From Chitinophagales bacterium (GTDB lineage: Bacteria; Bacteroidota; Bacteroidia; Chitinophagales; LD1), in contig JAEUVA010000010.1 of the NCBI GenBank assembly GCA_016787045.1, positions 100,531-164,530 of the forward strand: a DNA stretch of 64,000 nucleotides. The letters run 5' to 3'. Both the position numbers and the translations under genes were made by a program. How positions within the stretch are numbered: the first letter of the stretch is position 1; each line of letters begins with the position of its first letter. The notes beneath the pieces are model-generated. The model did not search any database. It worked only from the letters and a program-made list of their open reading frames with translations, and was not told the origin of the DNA. Below are positions 8,421-36,063 of this stretch, in pieces.

Positions 8421-8463
8421 TCTATCGGTACGGCACACATTCGGAACAATAAATCAAATACAC

Positions 8464-10518: not shown

Positions 10519-10551
10519 TGTATCTCAGGTAGATTTTTCTATCTGTTACAA

Positions 10552-11131: not shown

Positions 11132-11175
11132 AACTTGGCTATATCTATACTTTTTAACCCACTTATAGCCAAGTT
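11132..11175. repeat. 44-nt hairpin element 5 nt downstream of the ATPase stop codon (inverted copy of 12605-12648)
   Basis: 12-bp stem AACTTGGCTATA / TATAGCCAAGTT with a 20-nt loop TCTATACTTTTTAACCCACT. It matches the reverse complement of 12605-12648 at 39/44 positions. Confidence 0.85.
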
Positions 11176-11180
11176 GAAAG

Positions 11181-12596: not shown

Positions 12597-12604
12597 AAAA
12601 ATTA

Positions 12605-12648
12605 AACTTGGCTATAAGTGGGTTAAAAATACTACTTATAGCCAAGTT
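12605..12648. repeat. 44-nt hairpin element 8 nt upstream of the ATPase ATG (inverted copy of 11132-11175)
   Basis: Same 12-bp stem. The loop AGTGGGTTAAAAATACTACT contains the reverse complement of the TTTTTAACCCACT core. Confidence 0.85.
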
Positions 12649-12666
12649 GAGAAATTTATTTTTCAC

Positions 12667-17316: not shown

Positions 17317-18408
17317 ATGCCCGATAAATTTCAGATACAACGTTTAAACGATTGGTTCCCATTAAACGATTGCCCATTAGTAATTGCCGGGCCTTGCAGT
17401 GCAGAAGGCGAGGAGCAGGTGATGAATACCGTTTTGCAAATTGTGGAGCACACACAAGGTAAAGTACAGATGATACGCGCAGGTATTTGGAAGCCCCGCA
17501 CTCGCCCCAATAGTTTTGAAGGCGTTGGCGAAATTGGTTTGCCCTGGGTGAAAAATGCAGGCCGCGCTGTGGGGCTACCTGTTACGGTAGAAGTGGCTAA
17601 CCCGGAGCATGTAGAGGCCGCGCTCAAAAATGAGATAGATGTGCTTTGGATAGGTGCACGCACCACAGTTTCGCCATTTGCCATACAAGAAATAGCGGAT
17701 GCTTTAAGAGGTGTAGATATTCCGGTATTAGTCAAAAACCCCATTAACCCTGATTTGGAGTTGTGGATTGGCGCCATGGAGCGGCTTAATCAGGCAGGAG
17801 TAAAAAAGTTGGGCGCCATACATCGTGGTTTTTCCTCGTACGAAAAAACAATTTACCGCAACCCACCTATGTGGGAAATACCTATTGAACTGCGCAGACG
17901 ATACCCGCAAATTCCCATCATACTTGACCCCAGCCACATGGGCGGCACTCGCGATTTGATAGCCACCCTGTCTCAACAAGGCATGGATATGGGTTTTGAT
18001 GGATTAATGATTGAAAGCCACATTAACCCCGATAAGGCGTGGAGCGATGCTAAGCAGCAGGTAACCCCACAGCGATTGGGCGAAATTTTGAACGCCCTGA
18101 TTGTACGCAAACCTACCATGGCAGATAGTGGTTTACAATCGCTACACGACCTGCGTGCCCGTATAGATAGAATAGATGATTATATTATTGAATTACTCGC
18201 AGAGCGAATGGGTATTTCTGAGCAGATAGGAGAGGTTAAAAAAGAAAATCAACTGGCTGTACACCAGAGTGCCCGCTGGGCTCAAATAGTAAAACGTGCT
18301 TTAGAAAAAGGCCAAACCGGTGGGCTTACCGAAGATTTTATTCTCAAGCTTTTTCAGCAAGTGCATAACGAAAGTATTCGCCACCAAAGTAAGGTGATGG
18401 GATTGTAG
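17317..18408 (+). CDS. bifunctional 3-deoxy-7-phosphoheptulonate (DAHP) synthase / chorismate mutase type II
   Basis: N-terminal type I-beta DAHPS/KDO8PS-like barrel (LVIAGPCSAE, ILDPSHMGG). C-terminal chorismate mutase helices (LRARIDRIDDYIIELLAERMGISEQIGEVK). Start moved to ATG 17317. Confidence 0.8.
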   Translation: MPDKFQIQRLNDWFPLNDCPLVIAGPCSAEGEEQVMNTVLQIVEHTQGKVQMIRAGIWKPRTRPNSFEGVGEIGLPWVKNAGRAVGLPVTVEVANPEHVEAALKNEIDVLWIGARTTVSPFAIQEIADALRGVDIPVLVKNPINPDLELWIGAMERLNQAGVKKLGAIHRGFSSYEKTIYRNPPMWEIPIELRRRYPQIPIILDPSHMGGTRDLIATLSQQGMDMGFDGLMIESHINPDKAWSDAKQQVTPQRLGEILNALIVRKPTMADSGLQSLHDLRARIDRIDDYIIELLAERMGISEQIGEVKKENQLAVHQSARWAQIVKRALEKGQTGGLTEDFILKLFQQVHNESIRHQSKVMGL

Positions 18409-18419
18409 GGGGAATGTTT

Positions 18420-19787
18420 TTACCCTAACCCTGCCTCTTTGATAGCGCTCACGTAATCAAATCGCTCTAACAGTCCGGTATCAAACTTGCCTGAGCGAAA
18501 CTCTTCGTTATCCATTAACACAATGTGAAAGGGAATAGTGGTTTTTACGCCTTCAATAATAAATTCATCCATAGCCCGCTTCATTTTTACAATACATTCT
18601 TCACGGGTTTTGGCGCGGCAAATTACTTTGGCCAACATACTATCGTAGTAAGGTGGAATGGTATAACCCGCATAAATGTGTGTATCCACCCGAACTCCAT
18701 AACCTTTTGGGGTGTGCAGGGCAGTAATTTTTCCGGGGCTGGGGGCAAAATTATTGAGCGGGTCTTCGGCATTTACGCGGCACTCTATGGCGTGCATTTT
18801 TTCAGGAAAATACAACATGCCTGAAATAGGCGTACCCGCTGCTATAGTAATTTGCTCTTTGATTAAGTCAAAATCCATCACCTCTTCGGTTACGGTATGC
18901 TCAACTTGTATGCGGGTGTTCATTTCCATAAAGTAGAAGTTCTTATCTCTATCTACCAGAAATTCTACAGTGCCCACACTTTCGTAATTAATGGCTTTCA
19001 CCGCTTTCACGGCTGCTGCTCCCATTTTTTTGCGCAGCGCTTCGTCCACAAATGGCGATGGGGCTTCTTCTACCAATTTTTGGTGCCTGCGCTGTACCGA
19101 GCAATCGCGCTCGCTCAAGTGGCAGGCCTCGCCATATTGGTCACCGGCTACTTGTATTTCTATATGGTGTGGCTCTACTATAAATTTCTCCATGTACACC
19201 CCATCGTTACCAAACGAAGCACCGGCTTCGGTCCGTGCCATGTTGTAGGCGTTTTCTAAGCCCTTTTCGTCCCACACTATGCGCATGCCTTTGCCACCGC
19301 CACCGGCAGTCGCTTTCAAAATAACCGGGTAGCCAATCCGCACCGCATCTTTTTTGGCATCTTCTATACTTTCCACCAAACCCTCGCTGCCGGGTATGCA
19401 GGGCACACCGGCTTTAAGCATGGTTTCTTTGGCAGTTATTTTATCGCCCATGGCGCGTATCATATCGCCTTTTGGGCCAATAAATTTGATTTTGTATTGT
19501 GCGCACAAATCACTGAACTCGGCATTTTCGGCCAAAAAGCCATAGCCCGGATGAATGGCATCGGCATTGGTCAACTCTGCCACGGCCATAATGTTTTTCA
19601 TGTTCAGGTAAGAATCTTTGCTTTTGGGTGGGCCTATGCACACGGCTTCATCGGCAAAACGCACGTGCAAGCTATCGCGATCGGCAGTAGAGTACACGGC
19701 CACGGTTTTAATGCCCATTTCTTTACAAGTGCGAATAATGCGCAGGGCAATTTCGCCCCGGTTGGCAATCAGTACTTTTTTAAACAT
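18420..19787 (-). CDS. accC: acetyl-CoA carboxylase biotin carboxylase subunit
   Basis: [26 protein letters not shown]..., ATP-grasp [24 protein letters not shown]. 455 aa. Confidence 0.9.
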
Positions 19788-19978
19788 GGCGCAAGTTTAG
19801 TATTTAGCCCGAAGTGTAGTATCACTTTACCCAAAAAACCATTTCATAATTTGCCCAAAGCGTATATATTTGCCGCCCGCTTGCCGAAAAGGCAGGCGCT
19901 TTTTTTCGCCAAGCCGTGTGGTTAGGGATAAAACAGTGGGGATAGAAAAGCCGAAGCGTTCATCTATAAATTTGCGCT

Positions 19979-20509
19979 GTGAAGGGACTAAGGGAGTTTG
20001 AAATACCATACATCGGGCTAAAAATCGGCATACACCGGTTTGAATACGATATAGATGGCCAATTTTTTCGCCACTTTGAAGATTCTCCCATTAAGGAGTG
20101 CAAAGTGAGGGTAAAAGTGGAGTTTGAAAAAAAGGAAACGTTCTTTATTATCAAGTTTTTTGTTGACGGCACAGTAAGTGTAGAGTGCGACCGCTGCCTG
20201 GTTCCGTTTGATAAAGAGATTTTTGGTGATTATACCTTATACGTAAAGTTTGCCGAAGACCCCAATGCTTTAGCACATGAAGATGAGGTGCTCTTTATTA
20301 GCCGCGATGAACCGATTATAGACTTGGCGCAGCCGGTTTACGAGTACATTAACCTTTGCCTGCCTATGCAGGTGGTGCACCCCAAAAAGCCCAATGGCGA
20401 AGAGGGCTGCGACCCGGAGGTGCTCAAAATCCTCAACAAAAAACCCGAAGCTAAACCTACCGATGAAATTGACCCTCGTTGGGCAGTGCTCAAAAACCTT
20501 AAAAATTAG
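19979..20509 (+). CDS. yceD: DUF177/YceD-family protein (large-subunit rRNA accumulation protein)
   Basis: Lies immediately upstream of rpmF, as is typical. Contains CDRCL...PF and a conserved acidic C-terminus. GTG start is uncertain. Confidence 0.7.
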   Translation: MKGLREFEIPYIGLKIGIHRFEYDIDGQFFRHFEDSPIKECKVRVKVEFEKKETFFIIKFFVDGTVSVECDRCLVPFDKEIFGDYTLYVKFAEDPNALAHEDEVLFISRDEPIIDLAQPVYEYINLCLPMQVVHPKKPNGEEGCDPEVLKILNKKPEAKPTDEIDPRWAVLKNLKN

Positions 20510-20544
20510 AAACAAATTATTTGACCATCACAAAAACGTAAGTC

Positions 20545-20730
20545 ATGCCAAATCCAAAACACAAAATCTCTAAACAAAGAAGAGACAAGCGCAGAACTCA
20601 CTACAAAGCAGAAGCACCCACTTTGGGAGTGGATCAAACCACTAACGAAACGCACTTGCTGCACAGAGCACACGAAAGCGAAGGCAAACTCTACTACCGC
20701 GGCAAAGTGGTCATGGAGTTGAAAAAATAA
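20545..20730 (+). CDS. rpmF: 50S ribosomal protein L32
   Basis: [21 protein letters not shown] is a typical L32 N-terminus. 61 aa. Confidence 0.9.
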
Positions 20731-20754
20731 CCCCCAAAGAGCTATTTTTTTTTG

Positions 20755-20783
20755 CCCGTTCGGTTCGCTGAACGGGTTTTTTT
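20755..20783 (+). terminator. rho-independent terminator after rpmF
   Basis: Stem CCCGTTC / GAACGGG with an 8-nt loop, followed by T7. Confidence 0.75.
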
Positions 20784-20833
20784 GTTTGTAGGTGGTACCT
20801 ACTGTTCAACTCATTAATTAATTGCAAGCAATC

Positions 20834-22186
20834 ATGTTTACCTCATACCAATCTAAAATTAAAGAAGCGCTGCTGCTGGCCTTACCCATTATTGCCGGGC
20901 AGTTGGGGCAGGTGCTTATGGGCTTTTTTGATACTGTACAAATTGGCGGCCTGGGGCATACTTACATTGCCGCCACGGGCTTTGCCAATGGCATTTATTG
21001 GGTGATAATACTGCTTGGCATGGGCGTGCTGTTTGCCGTATCGCCATTGGTGAGTGAGGCCTTTGGTGCCGAAAAAGAATACCGCGCCATAGGTGTGCTG
21101 CGCTCGGGTTTGCTGGTATCGGTAGTGTTATCGGTAGTGTTTGTGATAGTTACAGAAATTGTGCGCGCCAACTTAGATGTTTTTAGGCACCCCGAAACAG
21201 ACACTCTGTTAGGTGCGCGGTATTTGCGCGTGATTAATTACTCTACACCGTTTGTTTTCTTTTTTATGTGTGGCAAGCAGTTTTTAGATGGCATGGGCAA
21301 AACCCTGCCCGGTATGTACATTACATTGGGTGGCTTGGCGCTCAATTGTTTTTTGAACTGGGTGCTTATCTACGGCCACTTAGGCGCTCCGGCATGGGGC
21401 GTAGAGGGGGCTGCATTGGCCAGTGGTATTTCAAAATTGGCGATGACGGTGGCTTTGTTTGTGTACATTTTTCAAAGCCGAAAGGTGAAGGATTTGCAAA
21501 CGGCCTACCACAGCCAGACGGAAAATACTACTGCCGGATATACTACGCATGTTTGGCCTATACTTACCATAGGGGTACCTGCGGGCTTGCAGTTTTTTTG
21601 GGAGGTAGCGGCTTTTAGTGCCGGGCAGGTCATGAGCGGGTGGATAAGCATAGAAGCCGAAGCCGCGCACATGATTGCTATTGGTATGGCCAGCATTACG
21701 TTTATGGTCATTACCGGGTTTTCGGCTGCCGGCACTATACTCACCGGTTTTGCTTATGGCGAAAAAAATGCGGAGGAGGTGAGAAAAACAGGTGTAGCTA
21801 TTCTGCTGATGACATTAGCTACTGAAGTTGTTTTTGCGCTTGTATTTGTACTGCTGCACCGCCAGTTACCACTACTTTATACCAATGAAGTAGTGGTGAT
21901 AGAAATGGCTGCAGCCATGCTTTTGTTGGCGGCACTTTTTCAACTCAGCGATGGGTTACAAGGTGCAGCTGCGGGCTTGCTGCGCGGCATACAAGATGTA
22001 AAAGTACCTGCATTAATAGCGCTCATTTCGTACTGGGGCATTATGGTACCTGCCTGTTATTATTTGGCATTTGAAGCCCGCATGGGGCTTGCCGGCATTT
22101 GGCTGGGGTTTGTAATTGGATTGACCATTGCTGCTGTTGGCATGTGGGCACGTTTTGGGTATATGGCCAAGCGGTTGAGGTTTTAA
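20834..22186 (+). CDS. MATE family efflux transporter
   Basis: ~450 aa with 12 predicted hydrophobic helices. N-terminal LLLALPIIAGQLGQVLMGFFDTVQIG and central LLRGIQDVKVPA are typical of the MATE/NorM family. Start moved to ATG 20834. Confidence 0.8.
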   Translation: MFTSYQSKIKEALLLALPIIAGQLGQVLMGFFDTVQIGGLGHTYIAATGFANGIYWVIILLGMGVLFAVSPLVSEAFGAEKEYRAIGVLRSGLLVSVVLSVVFVIVTEIVRANLDVFRHPETDTLLGARYLRVINYSTPFVFFFMCGKQFLDGMGKTLPGMYITLGGLALNCFLNWVLIYGHLGAPAWGVEGAALASGISKLAMTVALFVYIFQSRKVKDLQTAYHSQTENTTAGYTTHVWPILTIGVPAGLQFFWEVAAFSAGQVMSGWISIEAEAAHMIAIGMASITFMVITGFSAAGTILTGFAYGEKNAEEVRKTGVAILLMTLATEVVFALVFVLLHRQLPLLYTNEVVVIEMAAAMLLLAALFQLSDGLQGAAAGLLRGIQDVKVPALIALISYWGIMVPACYYLAFEARMGLAGIWLGFVIGLTIAAVGMWARFGYMAKRLRF

Positions 22187-22246
22187 AAACTACCAACACA
22201 AACTTATACAAACAATGAGATTCGCAGTAGGATTGCATCAAATCTT

Positions 22247-22281
22247 TTTACAAATTGGGAATTTAATTCCCAATTTGTAAA
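22247..22281. repeat. 35-bp perfect palindrome ending 8 nt upstream of the ATPase ATG
   Basis: TTTACAAATTGGGAATT-T-AATTCCCAATTTGTAAA. It shares its 16-nt arm core with the palindrome at 23432-23480. Confidence 0.9.
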
Positions 22282-22289
22282 TTTGCAAC

Positions 22290-23435
22290 ATGATACCAAG
22301 AGCCATAGAACCCGTACTTAAAAAAGCACTGCGGCAATTTCCGGTAGTGGTACTTACCGGCCCTCGCCAATCGGGCAAAACAACCATAGTAGAGAACCTG
22401 GCAGGGTATAAATATGTGAATCTAGAACACCCCGATTTGCGGGAATATGCTCGTGAAGATTCCCGCGGATTTTTAAGTGAATACGGTAAAGGCAAGTTAG
22501 TTATAGACGAGGCACAATATGTACCTCAACTTTTTTCGTACATACAGGCAGAAAGCGACAAGCACAAAAAGCCGGGTAAATTTGTTCTTACCGGCTCACA
22601 AAACTTTCTGCTCCTACAAAATATTTCGCAAAGCTTAGCAGGGCGCACCGCCATTTTAGAGCTGCTGCCTTTATCAGTGGCTGAATTACAAGCAGCTGGT
22701 AAACTTCCGGCCACCTACGAGCAATTCATTTTCAAAGGCGGGTATCCACGATTATACGGAACAAAGGCCAACAAACAACTGATGATGAGCGGCTACATTC
22801 GCACTTACGTGGAGCGCGATGTGCGCCAAATCGTAAATGTGCAGAACCTTTCGTTGTTCAATAAATTTTTAAAAAGCTGTGCAGCGCGTGTTGGGCAATT
22901 ATTAAATTACAGTTCTATAGGTAATGAACTGGGTATAGACCATAAAACCATCATGAAATGGATGTCTATACTCCAAAGCAGTTATATCATTTACTTGCTA
23001 CAACCCTATCACCGCAATTTTAATAAGCGATTAGTTAAAACACCAAAGTTATACTTTTATGATACCGGCCTTGCCACCGAACTGTTGGGTTTGCAAGATG
23101 TAAAACATCTGTACACTTATCCGCAGCGAGGGGAATTGTATGAAAATCTTGTACTGACGGAGTTAATCAAGCGTAGATTAAACAACGGAACTCAGCCAAA
23201 CCTGTGCTTTTGGAGAGACAGTACGGGCAATGAGGTAGATTTTATAGAAGAAATAGGTTCAAATACCGAGGCGTATGAAGTGAAATCTGCAAAAACCATA
23301 ACTCCCACCTTGTTCAGAGGGTTAGAAACGCTCAAAGCGTTAAGTGGATCAAATATAGGGCTAAATTTAGTGTATGGTGGAGTTGAAAATACTCAGCGAA
23401 ACGGTATTGATGTTTTAAACTGGAAAGGGCTGTAG
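22290..23435 (+). CDS. AAA ATPase with a DUF4143-like C-terminal (PD-(D/E)xK-like) domain
   Basis: Walker A LTGPRQSGKTT, Walker B LVIDEAQY. C-terminal GNEVDFIEE...AYEVKSAK (D..E.K). 381 aa, which is typical of the COG1373-type architecture as I recall it. Confidence 0.7.
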   Translation: MIPRAIEPVLKKALRQFPVVVLTGPRQSGKTTIVENLAGYKYVNLEHPDLREYAREDSRGFLSEYGKGKLVIDEAQYVPQLFSYIQAESDKHKKPGKFVLTGSQNFLLLQNISQSLAGRTAILELLPLSVAELQAAGKLPATYEQFIFKGGYPRLYGTKANKQLMMSGYIRTYVERDVRQIVNVQNLSLFNKFLKSCAARVGQLLNYSSIGNELGIDHKTIMKWMSILQSSYIIYLLQPYHRNFNKRLVKTPKLYFYDTGLATELLGLQDVKHLYTYPQRGELYENLVLTELIKRRLNNGTQPNLCFWRDSTGNEVDFIEEIGSNTEAYEVKSAKTITPTLFRGLETLKALSGSNIGLNLVYGGVENTQRNGIDVLNWKGL

Positions 23436-23480
23436 TGTTTTACAAATTGGGAATCAGATTCCCAATTTGTAAAACACTAC
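23432..23480. repeat. 49-bp perfect palindrome overlapping the ATPase stop codon
   Basis: GTAGTGTTTTACAAATTGGGAATC-A-GATTCCCAATTTGTAAAACACTAC. It lies between convergent genes, so it could also act as a bidirectional terminator. Confidence 0.9.
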
Positions 23481-23506
23481 GCTCTCTTAAATCTAAAGAG
23501 CAATGG

Positions 23507-24724
23507 TCATTGCTTTATTAACTTAAAATTATACCGTTTTTCATTACTTACAATAGTTACAAAATAAATGCCTGCTCCGGTTTCTGATACATCCAGCGCG
23601 GCATCGGTTTGGTTGGCACTTAGTGTGCGGCTGAGTACAATTTGACCGTTGATATTGGTAATGCTTACTATGCTTTCGGTACCACTATATGGCAAGCGTG
23701 TGTGGAGTTGCTCGGTAAATGGGTTGGGGGAGATAATGGGATGTTCCGTTGATATTGTTTGACTGTTTGACAGCATAGATGTTTCGTCCGTTTTTGCTGA
23801 GTTTATTTCAGTTGTAAACCCACACATCGCACCTATCTTGGCCTCAAAAACAGACCCTGCATCTGCCACCTCAAACCCCGGGTTAAGTTCTATAAACTCA
23901 CCTGCCATAAATGTTACAATTCCGTGATTTCCATTAGCCGTGCCCGGAATGAGTGGCTGTATTTTAGTAGTTCCGGTTGTTTTAATTGATTTATCAGCAT
24001 ACCAGTTTTGCTCCAATTGCACTATAATTTTTGTGGTCATTAAAACCAAACCATTAAACGCCTTTACAATGTATAATCCTGAAGATAAGCCATTCAACGA
24101 TACAACGCGCGGTTCATGTGGCATTAGGTCATTTACATGCGTTTGCTTTGCTATTTTACCCTGTAAATCCAATACTACTAATTGTAGTTGCTGAACGAGT
24201 TCTGATATTTCAACATTGATAGTATTGCCCGAATGCAAAAGTGTTGGGTAAATCTTAATTGTAAGGTTGCTTGGTAAATTTTCATCGTCAAATTTTTGCT
24301 CATAAAATAAATCATCAGTTTTAGCCGCTATTGTTGTTCGAGTTATAGCACACGGATTTATTTCAGCTACAAAATCAGTTCCTGAATAGAACCCGTTATT
24401 TAACTCAATATAAGTGCCAGCGTGATAACCAACAGTAATACCATCATTTATACTTTGAGTAGAGACTATTGAGCCTGTTACCGAATAGCCATTTGAGAAA
24501 TTCAGAACCCCAAACAAATTCTCACTTGGCACACAATAATTCATTCTCACAGTAGCTGTGTTCGTTTCACTTCCATCTCTCAAATAACTAAGCAAGTTGG
24601 TGTAACTTGGAGTTAAGCAAACAAAGTAACTGGGTCCGTTGCCGCAGGTGGTCAGCCCCCTAACCCCCAAAGGGGGAATTTCTACGCAGTTGCGCTTTTC
24701 GGTGTTACTCCGGTAGTGGCACAT
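23507..24724 (-). CDS. T9SS-domain protein carrying two sorting-domain modules in tandem and no signal peptide (possible fused or decayed gene)
   Basis: An internal CTD-like block (IYPTLLHSGNT...GLYIVKAFNGLVLMTTKIIVQ) is followed by a second module that ends in a terminal CTD (ISPNPFTEQL...GIYFVTIVSNEKRYNFKLIKQ). Neither M1 nor M61 is followed by a signal peptide. Confidence 0.5.
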   Translation of the reverse strand: MCHYRSNTEKRNCVEIPPLGVRGLTTCGNGPSYFVCLTPSYTNLLSYLRDGSETNTATVRMNYCVPSENLFGVLNFSNGYSVTGSIVSTQSINDGITVGYHAGTYIELNNGFYSGTDFVAEINPCAITRTTIAAKTDDLFYEQKFDDENLPSNLTIKIYPTLLHSGNTINVEISELVQQLQLVVLDLQGKIAKQTHVNDLMPHEPRVVSLNGLSSGLYIVKAFNGLVLMTTKIIVQLEQNWYADKSIKTTGTTKIQPLIPGTANGNHGIVTFMAGEFIELNPGFEVADAGSVFEAKIGAMCGFTTEINSAKTDETSMLSNSQTISTEHPIISPNPFTEQLHTRLPYSGTESIVSITNINGQIVLSRTLSANQTDAALDVSETGAGIYFVTIVSNEKRYNFKLIKQ

Positions 24725-25181
24725 ACTTATACTTTACTTCTACTTGGTAATCGGGCGGGATGTTTTCTACAGCGCAGAACATGCTTCTTGTGCCAGGAAA
24801 CTGTAGTTGCGCAGTATCGCGTTGAATCATACTTACATCATAAATTAGCTTCTTTAGACAAGTATCTTTAGATAAACTTGCTTGAAAGGTATCTCCGTAG
24901 AAATAAGACATCTTCCCAATCATTATATACACAAAATCGGTTTCATCAATTGGGAAGGCAACCGGTGGCGAAAAGGTGCAGTCGGTTATTGAATCAATTT
25001 GAGATTTTCTTCGCATGATGTATTCATACTCGTATAGGTTGCCACCGCAAGTAAATGTATAGTACTTTTCTATAAAAGGATCAACATAGTAGGGAGCGGA
25101 GGCGCAATGCGCCTTGTCTTTACAACAGCTACCTAATAATGTAGCGACAGCTACAATTACTCCAATCGCTATTGGCTTCAT
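24705..25181 (-). CDS. hypothetical lipoprotein
   Basis: Lipobox MKPIAIGVIVAVATLLGSC followed by CKDKAHC. Its ATG overlaps the upstream TGA stop (ATGA). Confidence 0.6.
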   Translation of the reverse strand: MKPIAIGVIVAVATLLGSCCKDKAHCASAPYYVDPFIEKYYTFTCGGNLYEYEYIMRRKSQIDSITDCTFSPPVAFPIDETDFVYIMIGKMSYFYGDTFQASLSKDTCLKKLIYDVSMIQRDTAQLQFPGTRSMFCAVENIPPDYQVEVKYKYVPLPE

Positions 25182-25402
25182 TGTATAACAATTTTCTGTG
25201 TAAATGATGTTGTGGAAGTTTGCACCTTAACTATATACATGCCCTGAGCTAAATTTGCGGTGGGAACTTGTAACGGTGAGCCAAACTGAAGTTCTGCCGA
25301 CTCGGTTGAAATCACATTAACACCGTTTAAATCATAAAATTTTACTTGTTGGTGACGCATCGGCAGAGCCGAAGCTATAACACCAACAAGGGCGAAATAC
25401 AT
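25178..25402 (-). CDS. orphan T9SS C-terminal sorting domain (74 aa, likely a remnant of a cargo gene)
   Basis: VKFYDLNGVNVIS...LAQGMYIVKVQTSTTSFTQKIVIQ is a complete CTD-like block with no cargo domain and no signal peptide. Confidence 0.45.
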   Translation of the reverse strand: MYFALVGVIASALPMRHQQVKFYDLNGVNVISTESAELQFGSPLQVPTANLAQGMYIVKVQTSTTSFTQKIVIQ

Positions 25403-25512
25403 AGGGTGTTCTTTTGCTCTTCGGTGGGGTCTCTCGTGCCGAAAAACAACTCATGATGTGGCGGTTAGAACACCCACCAACAGGAAAATTACTACATATA
25501 TACCATAAAAAA

Positions 25513-25809
25513 CTACTTCAACTTTGGCATACATGTTATGCCCGGTTTTTGCTCCTGCTGCTGTTTGTCTTTTTCATTGCACACCACTTGGTGATAAGTG
25601 ATGTAGTTTGTAGGTTTTGAAATTAAATCATAGCGCATGCTGTCTATAAAAAAATTGTATGCAGCGTAGTTCGGAAACTGATCCGAGCAAATGAGTTCTC
25701 CCGTAGAAATTCTTTTCACACAATCATTCACACAGTCAAAGCACTTTTTACAGCCGGACCAAAACACCAGCAGCACACTACTTACTACAGTAATAGTTAT
25801 TCTTCTCAT
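25513..25809 (-). CDS. small Cys-rich lipoprotein (paralog of 25778-26065)
   Basis: MRRITITVVSSVLLVFWSGC lipobox, then KKCFDCVNDC...LICSD. The start could also be 25833 or 25842. The 5' end overlaps the upstream paralog. Confidence 0.55.
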   Translation of the reverse strand: MRRITITVVSSVLLVFWSGCKKCFDCVNDCVKRISTGELICSDQFPNYAAYNFFIDSMRYDLISKPTNYITYHQVVCNEKDKQQQEQKPGITCMPKLK

Positions 25810-26065
25810 ACAAATATTGAATATTTTTGACATTGTTATCACACAGCTTCACATTTTCGGTAGGAGCTACCAAGGTGCAGCCGCTATTTAGTAGGAATTG
25901 ACGAGAACCCTGCCAGTTTGCTTGCCCGGAGTAATCAGTGCTGCATATCAGGGTAGTAGCAGAGCCACATTGGTAACACTCATTTTTACAGGTAACGCAT
26001 TTAGTACAGGACTGGCTAAACAAGATTAACAAACAGGCAAAAATCAATAGTGTGGGAGATTTCAT
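25778..26065 (-). CDS. small Cys-rich lipoprotein
   Basis: MKSPTLLIFACLLILFSQSC lipobox, then TKCVTCKNECYQC...LICSTD. Its ATG overlaps the upstream TGA stop (ATGA). Confidence 0.6.
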   Translation of the reverse strand: MKSPTLLIFACLLILFSQSCTKCVTCKNECYQCGSATTLICSTDYSGQANWQGSRQFLLNSGCTLVAPTENVKLCDNNVKNIQYLYEKNNYYCSK

Positions 26066-27705
26066 TGCTTTAATATTTTAAATGATAGGTAATTTGTACA
26101 AGTAGTGAACAAGAAAACATAGTAAATGCCGCCCGGCAGTTCTTCAAGTGATATATCTCCGAATGTTTTACCGGCTGACACTAACGCTGAGTTGGCATTG
26201 TATATTTTATAATCTAAGCCGGATTTTATCTCTTCTGTAACCTCTCTTGATGAACCTAAAACTTCAATTTTTCCATCCGTTGGATTAGGCGCGACCAGCA
26301 CTTTGCACGGTTCTATACTGTTAGTAATCATTTCCTGCCAATCTGTTTTTGCATTTGGGCCGCATCCGCTTAAGTATTCATAAGTAACTGTAAATGTTTT
26401 GACTTGCATGCCCATACAATTATAAATTGCTAAATCTACAGTTGCTATATGTTGTGATTGTGTAAAATATGCAAACGGATAACCGTTCCAATATTGTGTG
26501 ATCGGACTATTGATAGATTGTATGTCTTCAAAAATAATAGCCCCTGAACTATTTTTTATCATGACATGGTACCAACCTGCACCATAGGAATAAAAAGCCA
26601 TGTTGGTGCCGAAGCAATTAGTGGGTGTAGGGGGGTAATATGGAGCACTACAGTTTAAAAATGCGCATTGATTGGCATAATCAATATTTAAACCAAAATC
26701 ATAAGCCGGATCGTCCACTGCCCCACACGGTGCAATTTCTGCTACAAAAACACCGCCCGGCTCTACAACAAACCCCGGTTGTATATCAATAAAACCCCCA
26801 GCCCTAAACTTTATTTTTCTGTTAGATTTAACTATGACAGGTCCTGTGCTCATGTTTGGGGCACCCACATCGCTGCCGGCTCTAATAAATAGCCGTCTTT
26901 GGGTATTGTTTGGTAGTTTGTCCGAAATATCTTGGTATAGCATATAGTCCCCACAACAATCTCTATAAAGTTCTACATCATCTAATTGCACGCCTATTGA
27001 TGCGCAGGGGATTTCAACATCAGATTGATCATAAACCACCAAATCTATTGCAATCCAATCGTAACCGAATTCAAAAATTTTAATAGGGTCTATGGTCACT
27101 TGCTGCCAGCTATCGGCATTTGCAGTTAAAATAGGCGCTAAATAGGTTATGGGTTTTGTGGCGTGTATCTTTCTATAGTTAGCAGCACAGCTAACAGCAT
27201 CAATGTCGCTATTCTCTGAATGATAGCTAACTTCTGTTTTAGATAATCTTACACGCAGGTAATACTTATAACTACTGTTGTATTCGTACAACCCAAAACT
27301 GCTTGACCCCGGTGCTGAAAATAACTTTACATTGGCTTTAAAGTAATATAATCCTTCATTCAAAGCGTTTTGTAAATCTTGTTGTATAAGCTCCTCTGGC
27401 GTAAAGTATACTAAAAAATTACCTGTTGTGGGTAATACGCTGTTCATAAAGGGGTCAAAATTTCTGCAGCCAGAAAGCGTTGATAGCCAATCCGGAGAGT
27501 GTATAGCGCTGGTTCCGCTTGAGGTAGACGAGGAAACGGTTTGAGTTCTTGATGTCCAATCTTTTACCTTTTCAAACTGAGCTAAGCCTGTAGGGCAATC
27601 ACCGGTTATGTTAGGTGTCTCAAAGGAGTGATTACGTATTAAGTTTTGGGATTGAGCCGTAGCCCAAATCGCAAACAACAGGGATATTGTAAGAGGAGTT
27701 TTCAT
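26062..27705 (-). CDS. secreted T9SS cargo protein of unknown function
   Basis: Signal peptide MKTPLTISLLFAIWATAQSQ. Motif GGFIDIQPGFVVEPGGVFVAEIAPCG. C-terminal CTD VAPNPTDGKIEV...GGIYYVFLFTTCTNYLSFKILKQ. Confidence 0.7.
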   Translation of the reverse strand: MKTPLTISLLFAIWATAQSQNLIRNHSFETPNITGDCPTGLAQFEKVKDWTSRTQTVSSSTSSGTSAIHSPDWLSTLSGCRNFDPFMNSVLPTTGNFLVYFTPEELIQQDLQNALNEGLYYFKANVKLFSAPGSSSFGLYEYNSSYKYYLRVRLSKTEVSYHSENSDIDAVSCAANYRKIHATKPITYLAPILTANADSWQQVTIDPIKIFEFGYDWIAIDLVVYDQSDVEIPCASIGVQLDDVELYRDCCGDYMLYQDISDKLPNNTQRRLFIRAGSDVGAPNMSTGPVIVKSNRKIKFRAGGFIDIQPGFVVEPGGVFVAEIAPCGAVDDPAYDFGLNIDYANQCAFLNCSAPYYPPTPTNCFGTNMAFYSYGAGWYHVMIKNSSGAIIFEDIQSINSPITQYWNGYPFAYFTQSQHIATVDLAIYNCMGMQVKTFTVTYEYLSGCGPNAKTDWQEMITNSIEPCKVLVAPNPTDGKIEVLGSSREVTEEIKSGLDYKIYNANSALVSAGKTFGDISLEELPGGIYYVFLFTTCTNYLSFKILKQ

Positions 27706-27707
27706 AT

Positions 27708-29273
27708 CTACTTACCTTTTTTTAGCTGCTTCTCTAAATTAATCAGATGTAATGTCAACTCCTCAATTTTAGCTAAGAGCATAGCGTTCATTTTAGCTAA
27801 ATCTATTCCTTGCTCTGTTACTTCTTGAGCGCTGGGTATTCCGGGCAGATGTTTGTTCTTTTTTACAAACTTTTCTACATCGCTCAATGGCATTAGCTTG
27901 TAATCTTTATCAAATACATAATCACTCCAATCTCCCGTAGTTTTTATAGCACACTTAAACCGCTCTGCCAGTATTCCTTTTTCTACATATAGCGAGTAGC
28001 AAGAGTTAGTGGTACAGGGTGTTGATACATTGCCTATCTGTACAGTTCCTGTAATTTCGGCATTCCCTGCAACCTTTAGTTTATCGTTCGCATTACCGTT
28101 GTGTCCTACATCTACCAACAGGTTCCCTTCCTCTTCGGTAATGATGTGCCTCGCATTCCCTGTATTGCCAACCCAACGTAGTTGAGCGTTCCAGTCAGGA
28201 GTTGCCTTGTTTTCAACTAAGTCCACATACACATCATCAGTACCATTTCTCCGCACTCCTAAACTGCCACTCACCACTAATTTATCATTCCCCCCTCCAT
28301 TGGCCACCCCCGGGTCTATTACAAAATCGCCATTGATTTCGGTAATGAGGTGGCGGGGTTGGCCGGTATTGGCCGGGTTCATAAACCGGATGGCACTGGT
28401 ACCGGTGGTGGGGCGGGTAATATCTAATGTAGTAGAGCCATCGGTATCATACAAAACCACGGTAGAGTTGGTGTTTGGGGCAATACCTATTCCAATGTTT
28501 CCATTGCTGCTAATGCGAAAATATGGGTTATCAGACGGGGTCATGGTTGGTGTTTGAGTTGGCGCAGGTTGGTCTATGTTCATCAACACCGAAAAATTTT
28601 GCGGCAATGCCCGCATGTCAAATTGTGCAAAGGTTTGCATGTCTATATCCATTGGGTAGCCGGTGGCAATGGCTCCATTGCCAAATATGCCAAAGTTAAT
28701 GCGCTCATCGGTACTGTTCACCACACCAAAGGCCGGTACAGATTTGGGGATGGTGGAATTGTTGGTGTTATCAAGAATATCATTGCGGCTGTTAATCAAC
28801 ATACATCCCCCGGGTTCGTTAGCATCTCCCACATTAGTAAATATCATTAGTATTCGCTCATCTTGGTCTTCTACACCATACACCAGATTCCCCAAAATGT
28901 CGCCACTATACAAGTCGTTATTGTACCCCTTGGTAGAAATGTGCAGGTCAATAGCCGGAGATATACCTATGCCCACTTGCCCTTTATGGTTAACTATAAA
29001 ATCGGAAACAGTGGTAGGCCCGGCTTCGGTGTGTGCTGCCTCAATGTAGTTTCCCGGAGTTTGGCAATCAAAATCCTGTTTAAGCAATAGGTTAGGTCCA
29101 CTACAGCCACCAAGCACATGCAACTTGCCCGATGGATATATAGTGCCAATGCCCACATTCGTACCATCGTCAAAAGCACTGCTGCCGGTTTGCCCGGTTT
29201 GGTAAAAGCCCTGTGTGTAAGCGGTGCTCATACATAGTGTTGCGAGCAGAAAGGTAAGTAATTTTTGTTTCAT
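27708..29273 (-). CDS. secreted tail-fibre-like protein with a conserved helical C-terminal domain
   Basis: Signal peptide MKQKLLTFLLATLCMSTAYTQ (start moved to ATG 29273). Repeated GIG motifs (NVGIGTIYPSGKLHV, QVGIGISPAIDLHI, NIGIGIAPNTNSTV). C-terminus DWSDYVFDKDYKLMPLSDVEKFVKKNKHLPGIPSAQEV...LLAKIEELTLHLINLEKQLKK. Confidence 0.65.
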   Translation of the reverse strand: MKQKLLTFLLATLCMSTAYTQGFYQTGQTGSSAFDDGTNVGIGTIYPSGKLHVLGGCSGPNLLLKQDFDCQTPGNYIEAAHTEAGPTTVSDFIVNHKGQVGIGISPAIDLHISTKGYNNDLYSGDILGNLVYGVEDQDERILMIFTNVGDANEPGGCMLINSRNDILDNTNNSTIPKSVPAFGVVNSTDERINFGIFGNGAIATGYPMDIDMQTFAQFDMRALPQNFSVLMNIDQPAPTQTPTMTPSDNPYFRISSNGNIGIGIAPNTNSTVVLYDTDGSTTLDITRPTTGTSAIRFMNPANTGQPRHLITEINGDFVIDPGVANGGGNDKLVVSGSLGVRRNGTDDVYVDLVENKATPDWNAQLRWVGNTGNARHIITEEEGNLLVDVGHNGNANDKLKVAGNAEITGTVQIGNVSTPCTTNSCYSLYVEKGILAERFKCAIKTTGDWSDYVFDKDYKLMPLSDVEKFVKKNKHLPGIPSAQEVTEQGIDLAKMNAMLLAKIEELTLHLINLEKQLKKGK

Positions 29274-29376
29274 AAGTAGAGGATATTTAAGGTGAGGAAA
29301 AAACAAGCTACTACCCACCGCACAGCATTGGTGATAAGTACCCATAAAAACAACCGGTAAATTACAGAGAAACTGC

Positions 29377-29390
29377 GGGGGGGGGGGGGG
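29377..29390. repeat. G14 homopolymer (C14 on the operon strand) ~100 nt upstream of the surface-protein operon start
   Basis: Fourteen consecutive G in an otherwise mixed, AT-leaning intergenic region. Candidate slipped-strand phase-variation tract. Confidence 0.9.
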
Positions 29391-29646
29391 CAGAGTTTAC
29401 ACCACCGAAATTTGCCAAACAAGTAAGGGGAGTAAAAAGCAGCATGGTGGTGTGTTTGTAGCTGCAAAGCAAAGCAGGTATTTTGTATATGTCAACAAAA
29501 ACGCATGGTTTTATTTCTGCACTTGTAGTGCAAAATTAAATTTGGATGGTATGTGTTTTTTGTTTTATTAGTGTGCGAGCAAACATGTAAGTAGCTCTGA
29601 GCTAACCTGATGTTGAATTGCGTCAAATAAACTCTTACTATCGGGA

Positions 29647-29693
29647 GCATGTTGGCGCAGTTTGTGTACATGGCCAAGCGGTTAAAGTTTTAA
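29647..29693 (+). pseudogene. remnant of a MATE transporter 3' end
   Basis: It translates as SMLAQFVYMAKRLKF*, compared with GMWARFGYMAKRLRF* at the end of the intact MATE gene. 39/47 nt are identical. An in-frame TAA lies 7 codons upstream, so no gene body remains. Confidence 0.7.
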
Positions 29694-29728
29694 TTACTCT
29701 TGCTTAATGCCATTGGCAAAAAAAATGG

Positions 29729-30541
29729 TTACTCCTGCTTGATGCCGTTAGCAAAAACGAGTATTTTCTCTTCGCCTTCTTTGCTGATAAAGGTGCCTTT
29801 GCCATTGCGTTTGTTATCGGTCCAGGTGCCGGTAAACATTTCTCCATCGGCCCAGGTAAAAATGCCTGTGCCATGCATTTTTCCGTCTTTAAACTCGCCT
29901 TCGTATTTATCGCCATTGGCAAATAAAAATATGCCTTTACCGGTGCGGTTGTTGGCTTTGAATTCGCCCATGTAGGTATCGCCATTGGCAAAAGTCATTT
30001 TGCCGAAACCCTCTTTTTGGTCTTTTAGAAAATAACCCTCGTAAACATTTCCATTCCGATAAAAATATTTGCCTTTACCGGTTTTCATGGCCTGCACAAA
30101 TGCACCTTCATATTTTTCGCCATTGGCATAAACCATGGTGCCGGTGCCGCTAATTATTCCATTGGTAAAATCTCCGGTGTATTTGTTGCCGTTGGCGTAG
30201 GTGTAAGTACCCCATCCGCTCATGACATCGGCATTAAACTGGCCTACATAGTTATCGCCATTCGGAAAGTCATAATTGCCACGGCCATGGCGTTTATCAT
30301 TTACCCAATCGCCAAAATAGCTGGAGCCATCTTTAAAAATGGCGCGGCCAACTCCGTGGCGCATATCGTTTTGCCATAGGCCGTCATACAAAGAGCCATC
30401 ATAATATATAGCGCGGCCTTTGCCGTGTTTTTTACCGTCTTTGTAGTCGCCTTCGTATTTGCCGTTAATGTATAGCTGCTCCTGCGCGGTGGCAGAGCTT
30501 ACGGTGAGTATTAGAGCAATCAGGGGTAGCCAGTTTTTCAC
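29729..30541 (-). CDS. secreted MORN-repeat protein
   Basis: Signal peptide MKNWLPLIALILTVSSATAQ. About 10 repeats of the Y.G.[WF]..[DG]K.HG.G type. GTG start. Confidence 0.8.
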   Translation of the reverse strand: MKNWLPLIALILTVSSATAQEQLYINGKYEGDYKDGKKHGKGRAIYYDGSLYDGLWQNDMRHGVGRAIFKDGSSYFGDWVNDKRHGRGNYDFPNGDNYVGQFNADVMSGWGTYTYANGNKYTGDFTNGIISGTGTMVYANGEKYEGAFVQAMKTGKGKYFYRNGNVYEGYFLKDQKEGFGKMTFANGDTYMGEFKANNRTGKGIFLFANGDKYEGEFKDGKMHGTGIFTWADGEMFTGTWTDNKRNGKGTFISKEGEEKILVFANGIKQE

Positions 30542-30705
30542 AATTGCAGGTTTTTTGTACTGCTGTGATACGGCATTGTGGGTGCCAAGGTTACATTAAG
30601 ACCTTATGTGATAGGGGTATTTAAGCATGAGGGCAAGGTTCTTTTTTTGACTTTGCCAGGTGTTTCGGGGCGATTAATGTCTGAAACAGGGGCTATTTCA
30701 GCCAA

Positions 30706-30915
30706 TCAGTTTTTTAGCATACTGCGCACAGCGCTATACAGGCCGGCTACTAAAAACACTATGGCCAATAGCATGGTCAGGTATGGTTTGGTATTGCCCA
30801 TCCACGCATCTAATTTATAGCCAATAAAAAAGCCCAACAGGGCAGCGGCTATAATCTGAAAGCCAATGCCCGAAAATTTTAGCGCGTTGGAATATTTTTT
30901 TTGAGGTTTTTCCAT
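30706..30915 (-). CDS. small two-helix membrane protein, AtpZ/AtpI-like
   Basis: 69 aa. KFSGIGFQIIAAALLGFFIGYKLDAWMG...LLAIVFLVAGLYSAV resembles the ATPase_gene1 family as I recall it. Confidence 0.5.
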   Translation of the reverse strand: MEKPQKKYSNALKFSGIGFQIIAAALLGFFIGYKLDAWMGNTKPYLTMLLAIVFLVAGLYSAVRSMLKN

Positions 30916-30938
30916 CGCCTAGGATTTGTGTGATGAAA

Positions 30939-31349
30939 CTACGCAGTAGCTACCTTATCGGCAGAAACTCGTTTGTCGGTAGCATTGGTGTGCGATACGC
31001 TCATGCCCATTACGCACTTGCCGGTAAACTTGGCACCCTCTTGCACAACTAGTTTTTTGATTTTTATATCGCCCACTATATTGGCAGTGGCGCTGAGTAT
31101 AAGCAGTTCGCTCACTTCAATGTTGCCTTCTACACGGCCATCAATGTAGGCGTTTTGGCAAAGTACATCTCCGGTTATTAAACCACTGGCGCCTACCACT
31201 ACTTTTGCTTTAGAGGTTACGTTGCCGTTTACTTTTCCATCTACACGAATATCGCCTTCTGTGCTTACATCACCGGTTATGGTGGTGCCTTGCCCAAACT
31301 GGTTCATCAGGTTGGGGCCGGCAGGTCTTTCTTCTTTTTTGCCGAACAT
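30939..31349 (-). CDS. bactofilin (polymer-forming cytoskeletal protein)
   Basis: Beta-helical repeats: TTITGDVSTEGDIRVDGKVNGNVTSKAKVVVGASGLITGDVLCQNAYIDGRVEGNIEVSELLILSATANIVGDIKIKKLVVQEGAKFTGKC. Confidence 0.85.
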   Translation of the reverse strand: MFGKKEERPAGPNLMNQFGQGTTITGDVSTEGDIRVDGKVNGNVTSKAKVVVGASGLITGDVLCQNAYIDGRVEGNIEVSELLILSATANIVGDIKIKKLVVQEGAKFTGKCVMGMSVSHTNATDKRVSADKVATA

Positions 31350-31374
31350 AGTTTTTGTTTATTGGGGTGAAGGG

Positions 31375-32262
31375 CTAAAATAAAATATAATCGCGGGGGT
31401 TCAAAGCCCGGCCTTCGTGCCAGAGCTCAAAATGTACATGTGGCCCGGTGCTGGTTTCTCCGGTATTGCCGGTAAAACCAATTACTTCTCCGGCTTTTAC
31501 CTCATCGCCCGGTTTTTTGAGCAACTTAGAATTGTGCTTGTACACCGATAGTAAATTGTTTTTGTGCTGAAGTGTAATTACGTAACCATCGTTTACCGAA
31601 AAAGTGGCGCTCACTACTTTGCCATCAAAAGTGGCCATAAGCGGCTCACCGGCTTTTACGGCTATATCTACCCCAAAATGTTCTTTAGATGAGCCAAACT
31701 CATCGGTAATGTACCCTTGTACAGGCGCTATCAGGTGCAGTTGTTTTACTTCATCAACCGCCTGGCTGCCTTGCTGCGCACCTACACTCAGCGAAAAGTT
31801 TTCTTCCTCTTCCATTTCCTTGCGCAGGTCTTTATCGGCTGCATTGGTTTGGGTGATGTCTATTTTTGATTTGTCTATATCGCTATTTCCGGTGTTGGGT
31901 TTTGGGCGGCTGGTGTCTATTGAATCTTCGGCTAAGCGTATTAGGTTTTCTAACCAAACTTCTCGGGCATCTAACTTTTCTTTCAGCGAATCGGCCTGAG
32001 ATTGCAGGCGGATAATTTCGCCCTTGTAGTTATAGTCGCCAAAGCCGGGAATAAAATATTTGAGCGGAGTATAGATAATAGCTACTGCTGTAAGAAAGAT
32101 AAGTGTAAAGGCGGTAATACCACCAAACAACAACACATTTGTACGGGTGAGCACCAACGAAAATTTTTCCTCAAATGTTTCATCGTTGAGGAGCACAAAC
32201 CTGTATTTGTTTTTTAGGTTTTTATTCTCGGTTGCTTTTATCCTTTTAGCCACAGCGGTCAA
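31375..32262 (-). CDS. M23 family metallopeptidase (peptidoglycan DD-endopeptidase-like) with an N-terminal TM anchor
   Basis: HFGVDIA...GNTGETSTGPHVHFELW is a LytM-type H.D / H.H motif set. Has a TM helix and a coiled coil. TTG start is uncertain. Confidence 0.8.
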   Translation of the reverse strand: MTAVAKRIKATENKNLKNKYRFVLLNDETFEEKFSLVLTRTNVLLFGGITAFTLIFLTAVAIIYTPLKYFIPGFGDYNYKGEIIRLQSQADSLKEKLDAREVWLENLIRLAEDSIDTSRPKPNTGNSDIDKSKIDITQTNAADKDLRKEMEEEENFSLSVGAQQGSQAVDEVKQLHLIAPVQGYITDEFGSSKEHFGVDIAVKAGEPLMATFDGKVVSATFSVNDGYVITLQHKNNLLSVYKHNSKLLKKPGDEVKAGEVIGFTGNTGETSTGPHVHFELWHEGRALNPRDYILF

Positions 32263-32700
32263 TAATGGGCGGCTAATATAGCCAATGAGTTAAGCCCTGC
32301 TATGCCCTTTTATTTGGCTATACTAGTAGAGGATAAAGATTTGCAATTGTTGCCCGCAAAACAGATAATTGCTTTTGGCAGTTGTTACGATGGTGCATCG
32401 TATAATTATTACATGTGTCACCCACATGGCTTTCAAGTTTCCAAAATGCCGCCCAATTTTTCGGACAAAATTTTTACCTGAAAAAATGTATTTGGAAGCA
32501 AATTTTTTATTGAAAATGTTTTTCCACATAGGGAAAACGCGCCACCACTGCGTTTCTTGTGGCTAATTCACGTTTGCACATTTCGTGTTAATAAATGACA
32601 TGGAATAGTGATTTTCTGAAAAATAAATTCGTTCAAGTTTTCGGAAAAACATCCAACCAACTACCTGAATATTATTTAAAATTTTTACAACCTTAACCCT

Positions 32701-35700: not shown

Positions 35701-36063
35701 TTCCGCTTGCTGGCGTTTGAGTACCTCAACCGCAAAGACTTGGTACACGTTACACCAAGCGAACTAAGCATGCGCGAAAAATCCAGCTTAGATTTAACTA
35801 CCGATATACAAGACGAGCCGATTGAAGACCGCTCTGTACAACAGCAGCACCCCGAAATGCAGCCCGTACAAAAACCGGTAGCTAAAGAGCCAAAAATGAA
35901 GTTGATTGCACAACCTAAACAACAAGGGCTCAGCAACCTTAACGAGCACCTTAAAGATATGGGTGGCGATGCTCCGCCATGCAACGTATGCGGCAACATT
36001 ACCCTGCGCAGCGGTACCTGCTACAAGTGTATGAACTGCGGCAACAGCATGGGTTGCAGCTAA
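32701..36063 (+). CDS. nrdJ: adenosylcobalamin-dependent ribonucleotide reductase, class II
   Basis: 1120 aa. Active-site region [21 protein letters not shown]-terminal Cys-rich tail CNVCGN...[14 protein letters not shown]. Confidence 0.85.

Follow-up and report, generated by a model that had tools for sequence, protein, structure and literature searches.

A strain-specific 7.5-kb insertion with orphaned gene ends between the MATE and MORN genes of an uncultured Chitinophagales bacterium

We analysed a window of 64 kb (the whole stretch of DNA studied, to which all coordinates refer) from a Chitinophagales bacterium, taken from contig JAEUVA010000010.1 of assembly GCA_016787045.1, in which a gene for a MATE efflux transporter and a gene for a MORN-repeat protein converge and are separated by 7.5 kb. 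This intervening stretch, hereafter the island, contains an ATPase gene flanked by hairpins and several genes for surface proteins, a content that an initial annotation had described and that was borne out by Pfam and by a palindrome search. On the MORN side it ends with a second copy of the 3′ end of the MATE gene, and the initial annotation had read the two gene ends as attachment-site-like repeats (attL/attR) left by a single site-specific insertion. The Pfam scan covered positions 354-54028, with open reading frames (ORFs) of at least 120-130 amino acids (aa) and the smaller ORFs of the island; the ORFs of 54.1-64 kb lie outside it. Comparison with related strains established that the island is a real, strain-specific insertion between the converging MATE and MORN genes.

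Relatives of the locus were found in Logan assemblies of public sequencing runs and were grouped by the identity of their MATE gene to that of the window, which gave four close lineages; the MATE-MORN junction was sampled in about ten contigs from about five lineages. Among GTDB species representatives, the best MATE match has 66 % aa identity and the YceD-MATE synteny is kept, but the genes downstream are unrelated, which makes these genomes useless as empty-site controls. A scan of JGI metagenomes for the MATE end gave no matches, the clade being present in Logan/SRA assemblies only. In the lineage with 92 % identity (MATE P0002; L047/L057, L048 and L058 to L061), the TAA of MATE directly adjoins TTACTCTTGC..., the convergent MORN end. 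This empty site, for which the initial annotation had proposed to look in close relatives, was present in at least six metagenome samples. After MORN, these contigs continue with ATPase_gene1, bactofilin, M23 peptidase and ribonucleotide reductase genes as in the window, an order that is syntenic in all lineages, and on the other side the relatives keep the YceD-L32-MATE synteny. BLAST aligned positions 1-4653 of L047 with 17537-22186 of the window and positions 4609-10953 with 29649-36063, so that the window carries exactly 7,507 nt extra in comparison with the empty site. The MATE orthologues P0001-P0003 have 449-450 aa, and an identical MORN protein is present in four Logan contigs.

The last 47 nt of the intact MATE gene (copy A) recur at the right-hand end of the island (copy B). 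The two copies are identical at 39 of 47 positions, including a perfect 14-nt core, ATGGCCAAGCGGTT, and both end with TAA in the same frame, as the initial annotation had stated and as alignment and shuffling now confirm. The next-best ungapped match to the 47-mer in the whole window was 26-27/47, the maximum in block-shuffled windows (n = 100) was 29/47, and the binomial expectation for at least 39/47 over both strands is about 2e-10. The 14-nt core is absent elsewhere in the window and in the fetched loci, other than at MATE ends. A 14-mer alone would be expected about 7 times in 64 kb by our estimate, and the source is a metagenome-assembled genome, so that chance or an assembly artefact had to be considered. 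Apart from the shuffled maximum, an independent Logan assembly of sample SRR12425364 reproduces positions 25369-33837 at 100 %, and copy B is unlike the MATE end of any co-occurring strain and therefore cannot be a chimeric join between strains. We therefore regard this explanation as refuted.

When the final 786 nt of MATE were aligned locally, with gaps, to 29346-29703, the homology comprised these 47 nt (52 with softer scoring), and no degenerate or extended MATE homology was found upstream of copy B. An in-frame TAA stands six codons ahead of the ATG of copy B. Given this stop and the short homology, copy B is a bare gene end, in agreement with the initial annotation. Copy A is close to the MATE ends of the 99 % (L045) and 92 % (L047) lineages, with 3-4 differences in 47-48 positions, and by this comparison the intact MATE gene carries a native-type end. 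Copy B, in turn, differs from every host-type end both to the left and to the right of the 14-nt core: private changes are found in its left arm, the right arm is AAAGTTTTAA in copy B and GAGGTTTT(A/G)A in all host types, and the Arg of the family-conserved RF motif is lost.

Abutting copy B without a gap, we found a 29-nt sequence, TTACTCTTGCTTAATGCCATTGGCAAAAA (copy C), that had been overlooked in the first reading. Copy C is identical at 29 of 29 positions to the MORN end of the empty-site lineage (L047) and matches the true MORN end of the window (copy D, 29729-29757) at 25 of 29 positions, with a chance expectation of about 6e-6. Together, copies B and C make 76 nt that reproduce the unoccupied MATE/MORN junction, ...GTTTTAA/TTACTCTTGC..., and the comparison identifies the right-hand repeat as a 76-nt fossil of this empty junction. 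Four sites distinguish window-type from empty-type MORN ends, and copy C is of the empty type at all four; the 87 % lineage agrees with the window at 2 of the 4, which implies that the empty-type states are derived at these positions. Between the B-C relic and the real MORN gene lies AAATGG. GAATGG occupies the same position in L051, L053 and L054 of the 99 % lineage and in L065 and L066 of the 87 % lineage, and is absent in the empty-site lineage. As GAATGG/MORN is common to the 99 % and 87 % lineages, with L065 outgroup-like, this junction is older than the arrangement of copies B and C and the adjoining module S (see below).

The other lineages present further states of the junction. In the 99 % lineage (MATE P0001), the left side of the locus is covered by L045 and L046 and the right side by L051, L053 and L054. 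Different DNA begins here 2 nt before the MATE end, the stop being TGA, and is non-coding with a strict 21-nt periodicity. On the right side, 25367-25396 is joined directly to 29724 (...GGGCGAA/TGG/TTACTCC), and 4.3 kb (25397-29723) are missing; only AA is shared at this joint, which was seen in three independent samples. In the 87 % lineage (P0003; L049/L050, L065/L066), the divergence of MATE begins precisely with the first core base (...FAYM/CPFLK, then stop), and about 600 nt of the non-coding block precede GAATGG/MORN, with a 417-nt periodic part that is inverted relative to L045. Finally, L070 (DRR438507) is 97.2 % identical to window positions 21880-24028, comprising the MATE end, spacer, hairpins, ATPase gene and the 3′ part of a gene for a protein of the type IX secretion system (T9SS), and then carries a different cargo. 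Five junction states were thus observed, namely empty, with the non-coding block of about 600 nt, with the window island, with the island minus 4.3 kb, and with the ATPase module only in common. In the 99 % and 87 % strains, the intergenic DNA was searched for degenerate relics of the MORN or MATE end without a significant match (P 0.05-0.6), and the orphan spacers of the island have no similarity to this intergenic DNA. Approximately 38 loci of related species were examined, of which about 35 have at least 500 nt downstream of MATE. No MATE-end relic was found in these 35, the best match of 24/40 being equal to the background, and on these sequences the MATE 3′ end is not a recurrent target in related species.

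The relic could also be what is left of a second copy of the MATE-MORN junction, once containing all or much of MATE, which would have arrived by duplication or by homologous recombination and then been trimmed by deletion to 47 nt of MATE and 29 nt of MORN. The exact contiguity of B and C, as in the native junction, agrees with this, and so do the non-synonymous changes of copy B, including the loss of the conserved Arg, which fit unconstrained decay; deletions with minimal microhomology do happen at the MATE-MORN locus. Nevertheless, no trace of degenerate MATE sequence precedes 29647, no relative was seen with a longer second MATE or with the full-length paralog that the initial annotation had named as the sign of gene decay, and the only other contig that covers the region is 100 % identical. 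We consider this origin improbable.

Comparison between strains divided the island and its right-hand junction into six parts (22187-24028, 24029-25396, 25397-29571, 29572-29646, 29647-29722 and 29723-29728), of which the second is known from the window alone. Other strains reveal at least four internal breakpoints, at 24028, 25396/7, 29571 and 29722/3, and the modules differ in their distribution among strains, so that the island does not behave as one unit. This comparison shows a composite. The largest part, module S (25397-29571), has a homologue (86-91 % nt identity) at another locus, beside an asparaginase-family gene, in L068 and L069, contigs that come from the same samples as the 87 % lineage. 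Its divergence at four-fold sites is 0.16, compared with 0.30-0.45 for core genes of that lineage, which suggests either that module S moved between lineages or that L068 belongs to a closer, unsampled strain. Homology to L068 ends at 29571; the 75-nt spacer that follows is not significantly similar to either the MATE gene or sister-strain intergenic DNA, and the left boundary of copy B (29646/7) shows no recognisable homology.

Signs of exchange were also found in the flanks, where the window and the empty-site lineage are separated by 2 mismatches in some 200-nt bins in which the 99 % strain has 10-17. Within MATE, a 37-nt patch with 12 differences (22003-22039) is shared by the window and L070 on one side and by the 99 % strain and the 92 % lineage on the other. 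Taken together, these patterns indicate that short-tract homologous exchange is frequent among these lineages. The mosaic patches in MATE and in both flanks do not adjoin the island boundary and are ambiguous in polarity. We considered 22003-22039 as an anchor tract for the incoming DNA and rejected it, because it does not adjoin the island and a conversion event in the 99 % strain would explain the patch equally well. More generally, 21943-22150 consists of short mosaic patches when compared with L045, L047 and L070.

The greater AT richness of the segment, which the initial annotation had noted by eye, is borne out in part: its GC content is 41.0 % against 43.9 % in the rest, at the 5th percentile among windows of equal size. 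The deviation is modest: the tetranucleotide distance lies about 2.1 standard deviations above the mean, 8 % of windows being equally deviant, and the GC content at third codon positions is 0.33-0.46 for the segment and 0.44-0.51 for the flanking genes. No integrase, recombinase or transposase domain was detected by Pfam, NCBIfam and PADLOC in any island ORF, or by Pfam in the larger ORFs of 354-54028, and no tRNA was found in the window, as stated by the initial annotation. The window and the intergenic DNA of the relatives gave no Rfam match, and comparison of the island with plasmids and phages revealed no similarity beyond one weak match of 204 nt. A transposon or insertion sequence was also considered and rejected, since no transposase was found in the scanned ORFs, the ends of 22187-29646 are not inverted repeats and the imperfect 47-nt repeat is not a target-site duplication.

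The interpretation as a single attL/attR insertion was in part sustained, by the indel polymorphism, the repeats and the empty site. In a broader form, the island would be a decayed or non-autonomous integrative element at the MATE 3′ end, introduced, possibly in another host, by a site-specific recombinase acting on the ATGGCCAAGCGGTT core and later rearranged, its integrase having been lost, or never present and supplied in trans, as for cis-mobilizable elements (CIMEs). The imperfect in-frame direct repeats of a target-gene 3′ end around a perfect core, and the relatives whose empty site holds a single copy, are what such an element would give; different DNA starts at most 2 nt from the MATE stop in L045 and at the first core base in L049, Logan contigs break at these junctions in several samples, from which we infer heterogeneity of the populations, and integrase-less elements flanked by att sites (CIMEs) are a known category (PMC5704250, PMC6323972). 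The structure of the right-hand repeat does not fit, however. After a crossover within the core, the part of attR that lies right of the core should be native, which is not seen, so that copy B is not composed of element arm, core and native host arm; its right arm and the MORN-end copy that follows are of foreign type, and the real MORN end lies beyond AAATGG. The lack of an integrase in the island or in the scanned ORFs, the mosaic with module-specific histories, the restriction of the core to MATE ends and the absence of reuse of the target in related species argue in the same direction, and we regard an integrative element as a doubtful, though not far-fetched, explanation.

We lean, if only slightly, towards another reading, in which the MATE-MORN space is a recombination hotspot and the 7.5 kb are a patchwork acquired stepwise rather than one self-inserted element. 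DNA from related strains would enter by homologous recombination anchored in the flanking genes or in conserved parts coding for T9SS tails, and the far end of the incoming DNA would be joined illegitimately, as in homology-facilitated illegitimate recombination (HFIR). The old gene end would be pushed downstream, or a donor flank dragged along, which would leave bare ends such as B and C. In the most economical history of the right half, module S, the spacer, B and C would have passed from a donor of the empty-site branch into a genome like L051 (truncated T9SS tail, GAATGG, MORN), with a right-hand join through the 2-nt microhomology AA (AA/TGG). The coincidence of the junctions with stop codons is to be expected from selection alone, as insertions that disrupt MATE or MORN would be lost. 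With a candidate anti-phage ATPase-nuclease (PDC-S01) and surface proteins exported by the T9SS, the cargo belongs to the strain-variable cell-surface and defence genes that typically gather in such hotspots.

Several points weigh against the stepwise reading. The proposed donor, an island-bearing genome of the empty-site branch that already had the relic B, was not observed. That the 4.3-kb difference reflects an insertion in the window and not a deletion in L051 is suggested by parsimony only. The window-type island was found in one sample only, SRR12425364, with contigs that are 100 % identical. Copy B has 6 private changes and copy C none (P about 0.02-0.09 under equal decay), which is mildly awkward for a common history of the two. 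In addition, divergence sets in no more than a few bases from the MATE stop in three lineages, in one of them exactly at the core start, which could mean site specificity and not only selection against disruption of MATE, and a 47-nt repeat that is in frame, contains a perfect 14-nt core and stands at the exact end of a gene has the look of the att sites of islands that target 3′ ends.

We compared the island with three known kinds of locus. Islands integrated at gene 3′ ends, including integrative and mobilizable elements (IMEs) and CIMEs, likewise show presence/absence polymorphism, a single-copy unoccupied site, direct repeats with a shared core that correspond to the last codons of the target, and an accessory cargo that includes a candidate defence gene. 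In contrast to them, the island has no integrase inside and no attR structure running into the host flank, its distal repeat being foreign on both sides of the core and fused to the relic of a neighbouring gene end; it is a mosaic with separate module histories that does not behave as one unit, and its target is unused in related species. The second kind comprises the rhs, contact-dependent inhibition (CDI) and type VI secretion system (T6SS) effector loci, where C-terminal displacement and orphaned 3′ ends have been attributed to HFIR (PMC5361080). Here as there, acquired DNA lies downstream of an intact gene and separates it from bare displaced 3′ fragments, namely B and C, the distal end was joined illegitimately, with hardly any homology or none, the microhomology at the single resolved internal junction is only 2 nt, and homologous exchange is seen in the flanks. 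Unlike those loci, the genes are a MATE transporter and a MORN protein and not polymorphic toxins, there is one orphan per gene without an array and without a selective logic such as retained immunity genes, and the relics of two convergent genes stand side by side.

The third kind is that of defence or accessory hotspots between core genes without identifiable mobilisation machinery, such as E. coli hotspot #37 and the core defence hotspots of P. aeruginosa (PMC10121019, PMC10250203). The island resembles them in its fixed core flanks, in a content that differs between close strains, in the presence of a defence-type gene and in the lack of mobile-element hallmarks; it differs in that its only defence gene is a candidate (PDC-S01) and its cargo consists mostly of T9SS surface proteins. 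In our view the feature is best placed with strain-variable islands that carry orphaned gene ends at hotspots between core genes; the locus is ordinary, though neatly documented, genome plasticity. If the stepwise reading is true, it provides a compact and well-resolved example, in an uncultured member of the Bacteroidota, of the build-up of accessory DNA between conserved genes without a resident mobility gene, in which ordinary and illegitimate recombination can leave bare relics of gene ends. It would also be a caution for pipelines that infer attL/attR and integrative elements from duplicated gene ends alone.

The features of the locus are collected in Table 1. The MATE ORF as called mechanically (454 aa) begins at TTG 20822, the true start being downstream. 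The T9SS-type genes next to the ATPase consist of a 405-aa ORF (23507-24724) with the Por_Secre_tail sorting domain and no signal peptide, and of a 158-aa ORF (24705-25181) with a lipoprotein-type signal and no sorting domain; the latter overlaps the start of the former by 20 nt (24705-24724). This arrangement probably reflects a single T9SS cargo gene that a frameshift has divided into two ORFs, and their exact proteins were found in sample SRR12425364 only. The 74-aa fragment that follows aligns in Pfam only to positions 21-75 of the Por_Secre_tail profile.

Table 1. Features of the MATE-MORN locus in the 64-kb window.
Feature	Coordinates	Strand	Description
MATE efflux transporter gene	20834..22186	+	450 aa; Pfam MatE, E 1.8e-50; conserved left flank
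Copy A	22140..22186	+	Last 47 nt of intact MATE (GMWARFGYMAKRLRF, then stop); native-type end
Module 1	22187..24028	+	59-nt spacer, hairpin 22246-22281, ATPase gene, hairpin 23432-23480, 3′ part of T9SS cargo gene
AAA_14/DUF4143 ATPase gene	22290-23435	+	Pfam; PADLOC candidate defence gene PDC-S01, E 1.9e-105
T9SS-sorted surface protein gene(s)	23507..25181	-	Por_Secre_tail 1.5e-15, GCX_COOH 4.9e-20
Truncated T9SS C-terminal sorting-domain fragment	25178..25402	-	74 aa; breakpoint at 25396/25397
Module S	25397..29571	-	Four genes and upstream region with G14 tract
Two small Cys-rich lipoprotein paralogues (module S)	25513-25842, 25778-26065	-	Paralogy by comparison
T9SS-sorted protein (module S)	26062-27705	-	547 aa; Pfam
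Surface protein with tail-fibre-like C-terminus (module S)	27708-29273	-	521 aa; 545-aa mechanical ORF, true start downstream
Orphan spacer	29572..29646		75 nt; L068 homology ends at 29571
Copy B	29647..29693	+	Bare diverged MATE 3′ end (SMLAQFVYMAKRLKF, then stop); 39/47 vs copy A
Copy C	29694..29722	-	Relic of MORN 3′ end (...FANGIKQE, then stop); contiguous with B as in empty site
Junction sequence AAATGG	29723..29728		Precedes real MORN stop
MORN-repeat protein gene	29729..30541	-	270 aa; Pfam MORN, 2.8e-59; conserved right flank

Within module S, the product of the 545-aa ORF has no homologue with more than 40 % identity elsewhere. About 100 nt upstream of this surface-protein gene lies a G14 tract (29377-29390 on the plus strand; C14 in the coding direction). 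The 64 kb contain no other long homopolymer, and the homologous copy in L068 has G8. The tract is a candidate for phase variation by slipped-strand mispairing.

PDC-S01 is the sole defence-type match of PADLOC in the island. It is a candidate defence family with validation pending (PMC12988326), and DUF4143 is counted among the PD-(D/E)XK nucleases (PMC3424549). The same 36-nt palindrome lies on both sides of the gene, at 22246-22281 and 23438-23473. A second candidate defence ATPase, PDC-S27 (PADLOC, E 1e-201), is encoded on the minus strand at 11181-12596 and is bracketed by hairpins at 11127-11178 and 12602-12653, 52 nt each and 85 % complementary to each other. The PDC-S27 unit (11089-12670, 1.58 kb) is precisely absent from the 97-98 % identical L045, with no target duplication, and it rewrites or supplies the last codon and the stop of the upstream AraC-family gene (12667-13674). 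The two genes have a common layout: a gene-specific pair of long hairpins, of which one ends 5-8 nt before the ATG and the other stands at or just after the stop (for PDC-S01, the unit is 22246-23480). Each is also directly downstream of, and co-directional with, a host gene whose stop marks the boundary.

We looked for this layout in homologues. In the plasmid-borne PDC-S01 homologues (L191-L196; three Runella, Emticicia, Allochromatium and Wolbachia, of three phyla), a strong palindrome that ends 0-10 nt before the ATG is present in six of six and a matching downstream copy in none of the six. The arms in two of them, Allochromatium (TTTACAGATTGAA...) and Runella rosea (...GGAATTTAATTCC...), resemble TTTACAAATTG of the window, and the palindrome upstream of the PDC-S01 ATG is possibly a conserved operator for autoregulation. 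The PDC-S27 homologues examined have neither an upstream palindrome nor a downstream copy. We therefore rejected paired hairpins as a general feature of PDC-S01 and PDC-S27, as there are homologues without the pair and the layout is so far specific to this genome. The pairs may mark a mobile cassette, or may serve as operator and terminator. It is conceivable, although we think it rather unlikely, that the ATPase-nuclease genes are themselves insertable, as a new type of hairpin-bounded single-gene cassette that lands at gene 3′ ends; its own PD-(D/E)XK nuclease, or a function supplied in trans, might mobilise such a cassette, and one of them would have opened the MATE junction. Two different candidate defence ATPases with paired hairpins, one of them a clean indel, may deserve a systematic survey.

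The non-coding DNA at the junction of the sister lineages contains a block of about 417 nt (L045 11434-11850; L065 3960-4500), absent from the window, with 13-16 phased 21-nt units that each end in CGCGA(G/A). The copies of L045 and L065 are 88.7 % identical and opposite in orientation relative to the flanking genes; one reading frame is open through the array, and Rfam gave no match. A simple invertase switch was considered for this block and rejected, as no flanking inverted repeats of at least 11 nt were found. A metagenome scan for the 21-nt CGCGA periodicity returned mostly GC-rich matches with several ORFs across them, which we took as coding repeats. In the 87 % lineage, the new MATE end makes up the left arm of a hairpin whose stem measures about 22 nt (L049 11320-11362, L065 4498-4522); the right arm begins the next contig, both contigs breaking within the palindrome.

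Finally, at 38494-43747 of the window, a Fic-domain gene (38494-39456) is followed by a 1316-aa ORF without a Pfam match. In tetranucleotide composition, no 7.5-kb segment of the whole sequence deviates more than the one that starts at about 38.5 kb, which exceeds the island in this respect.

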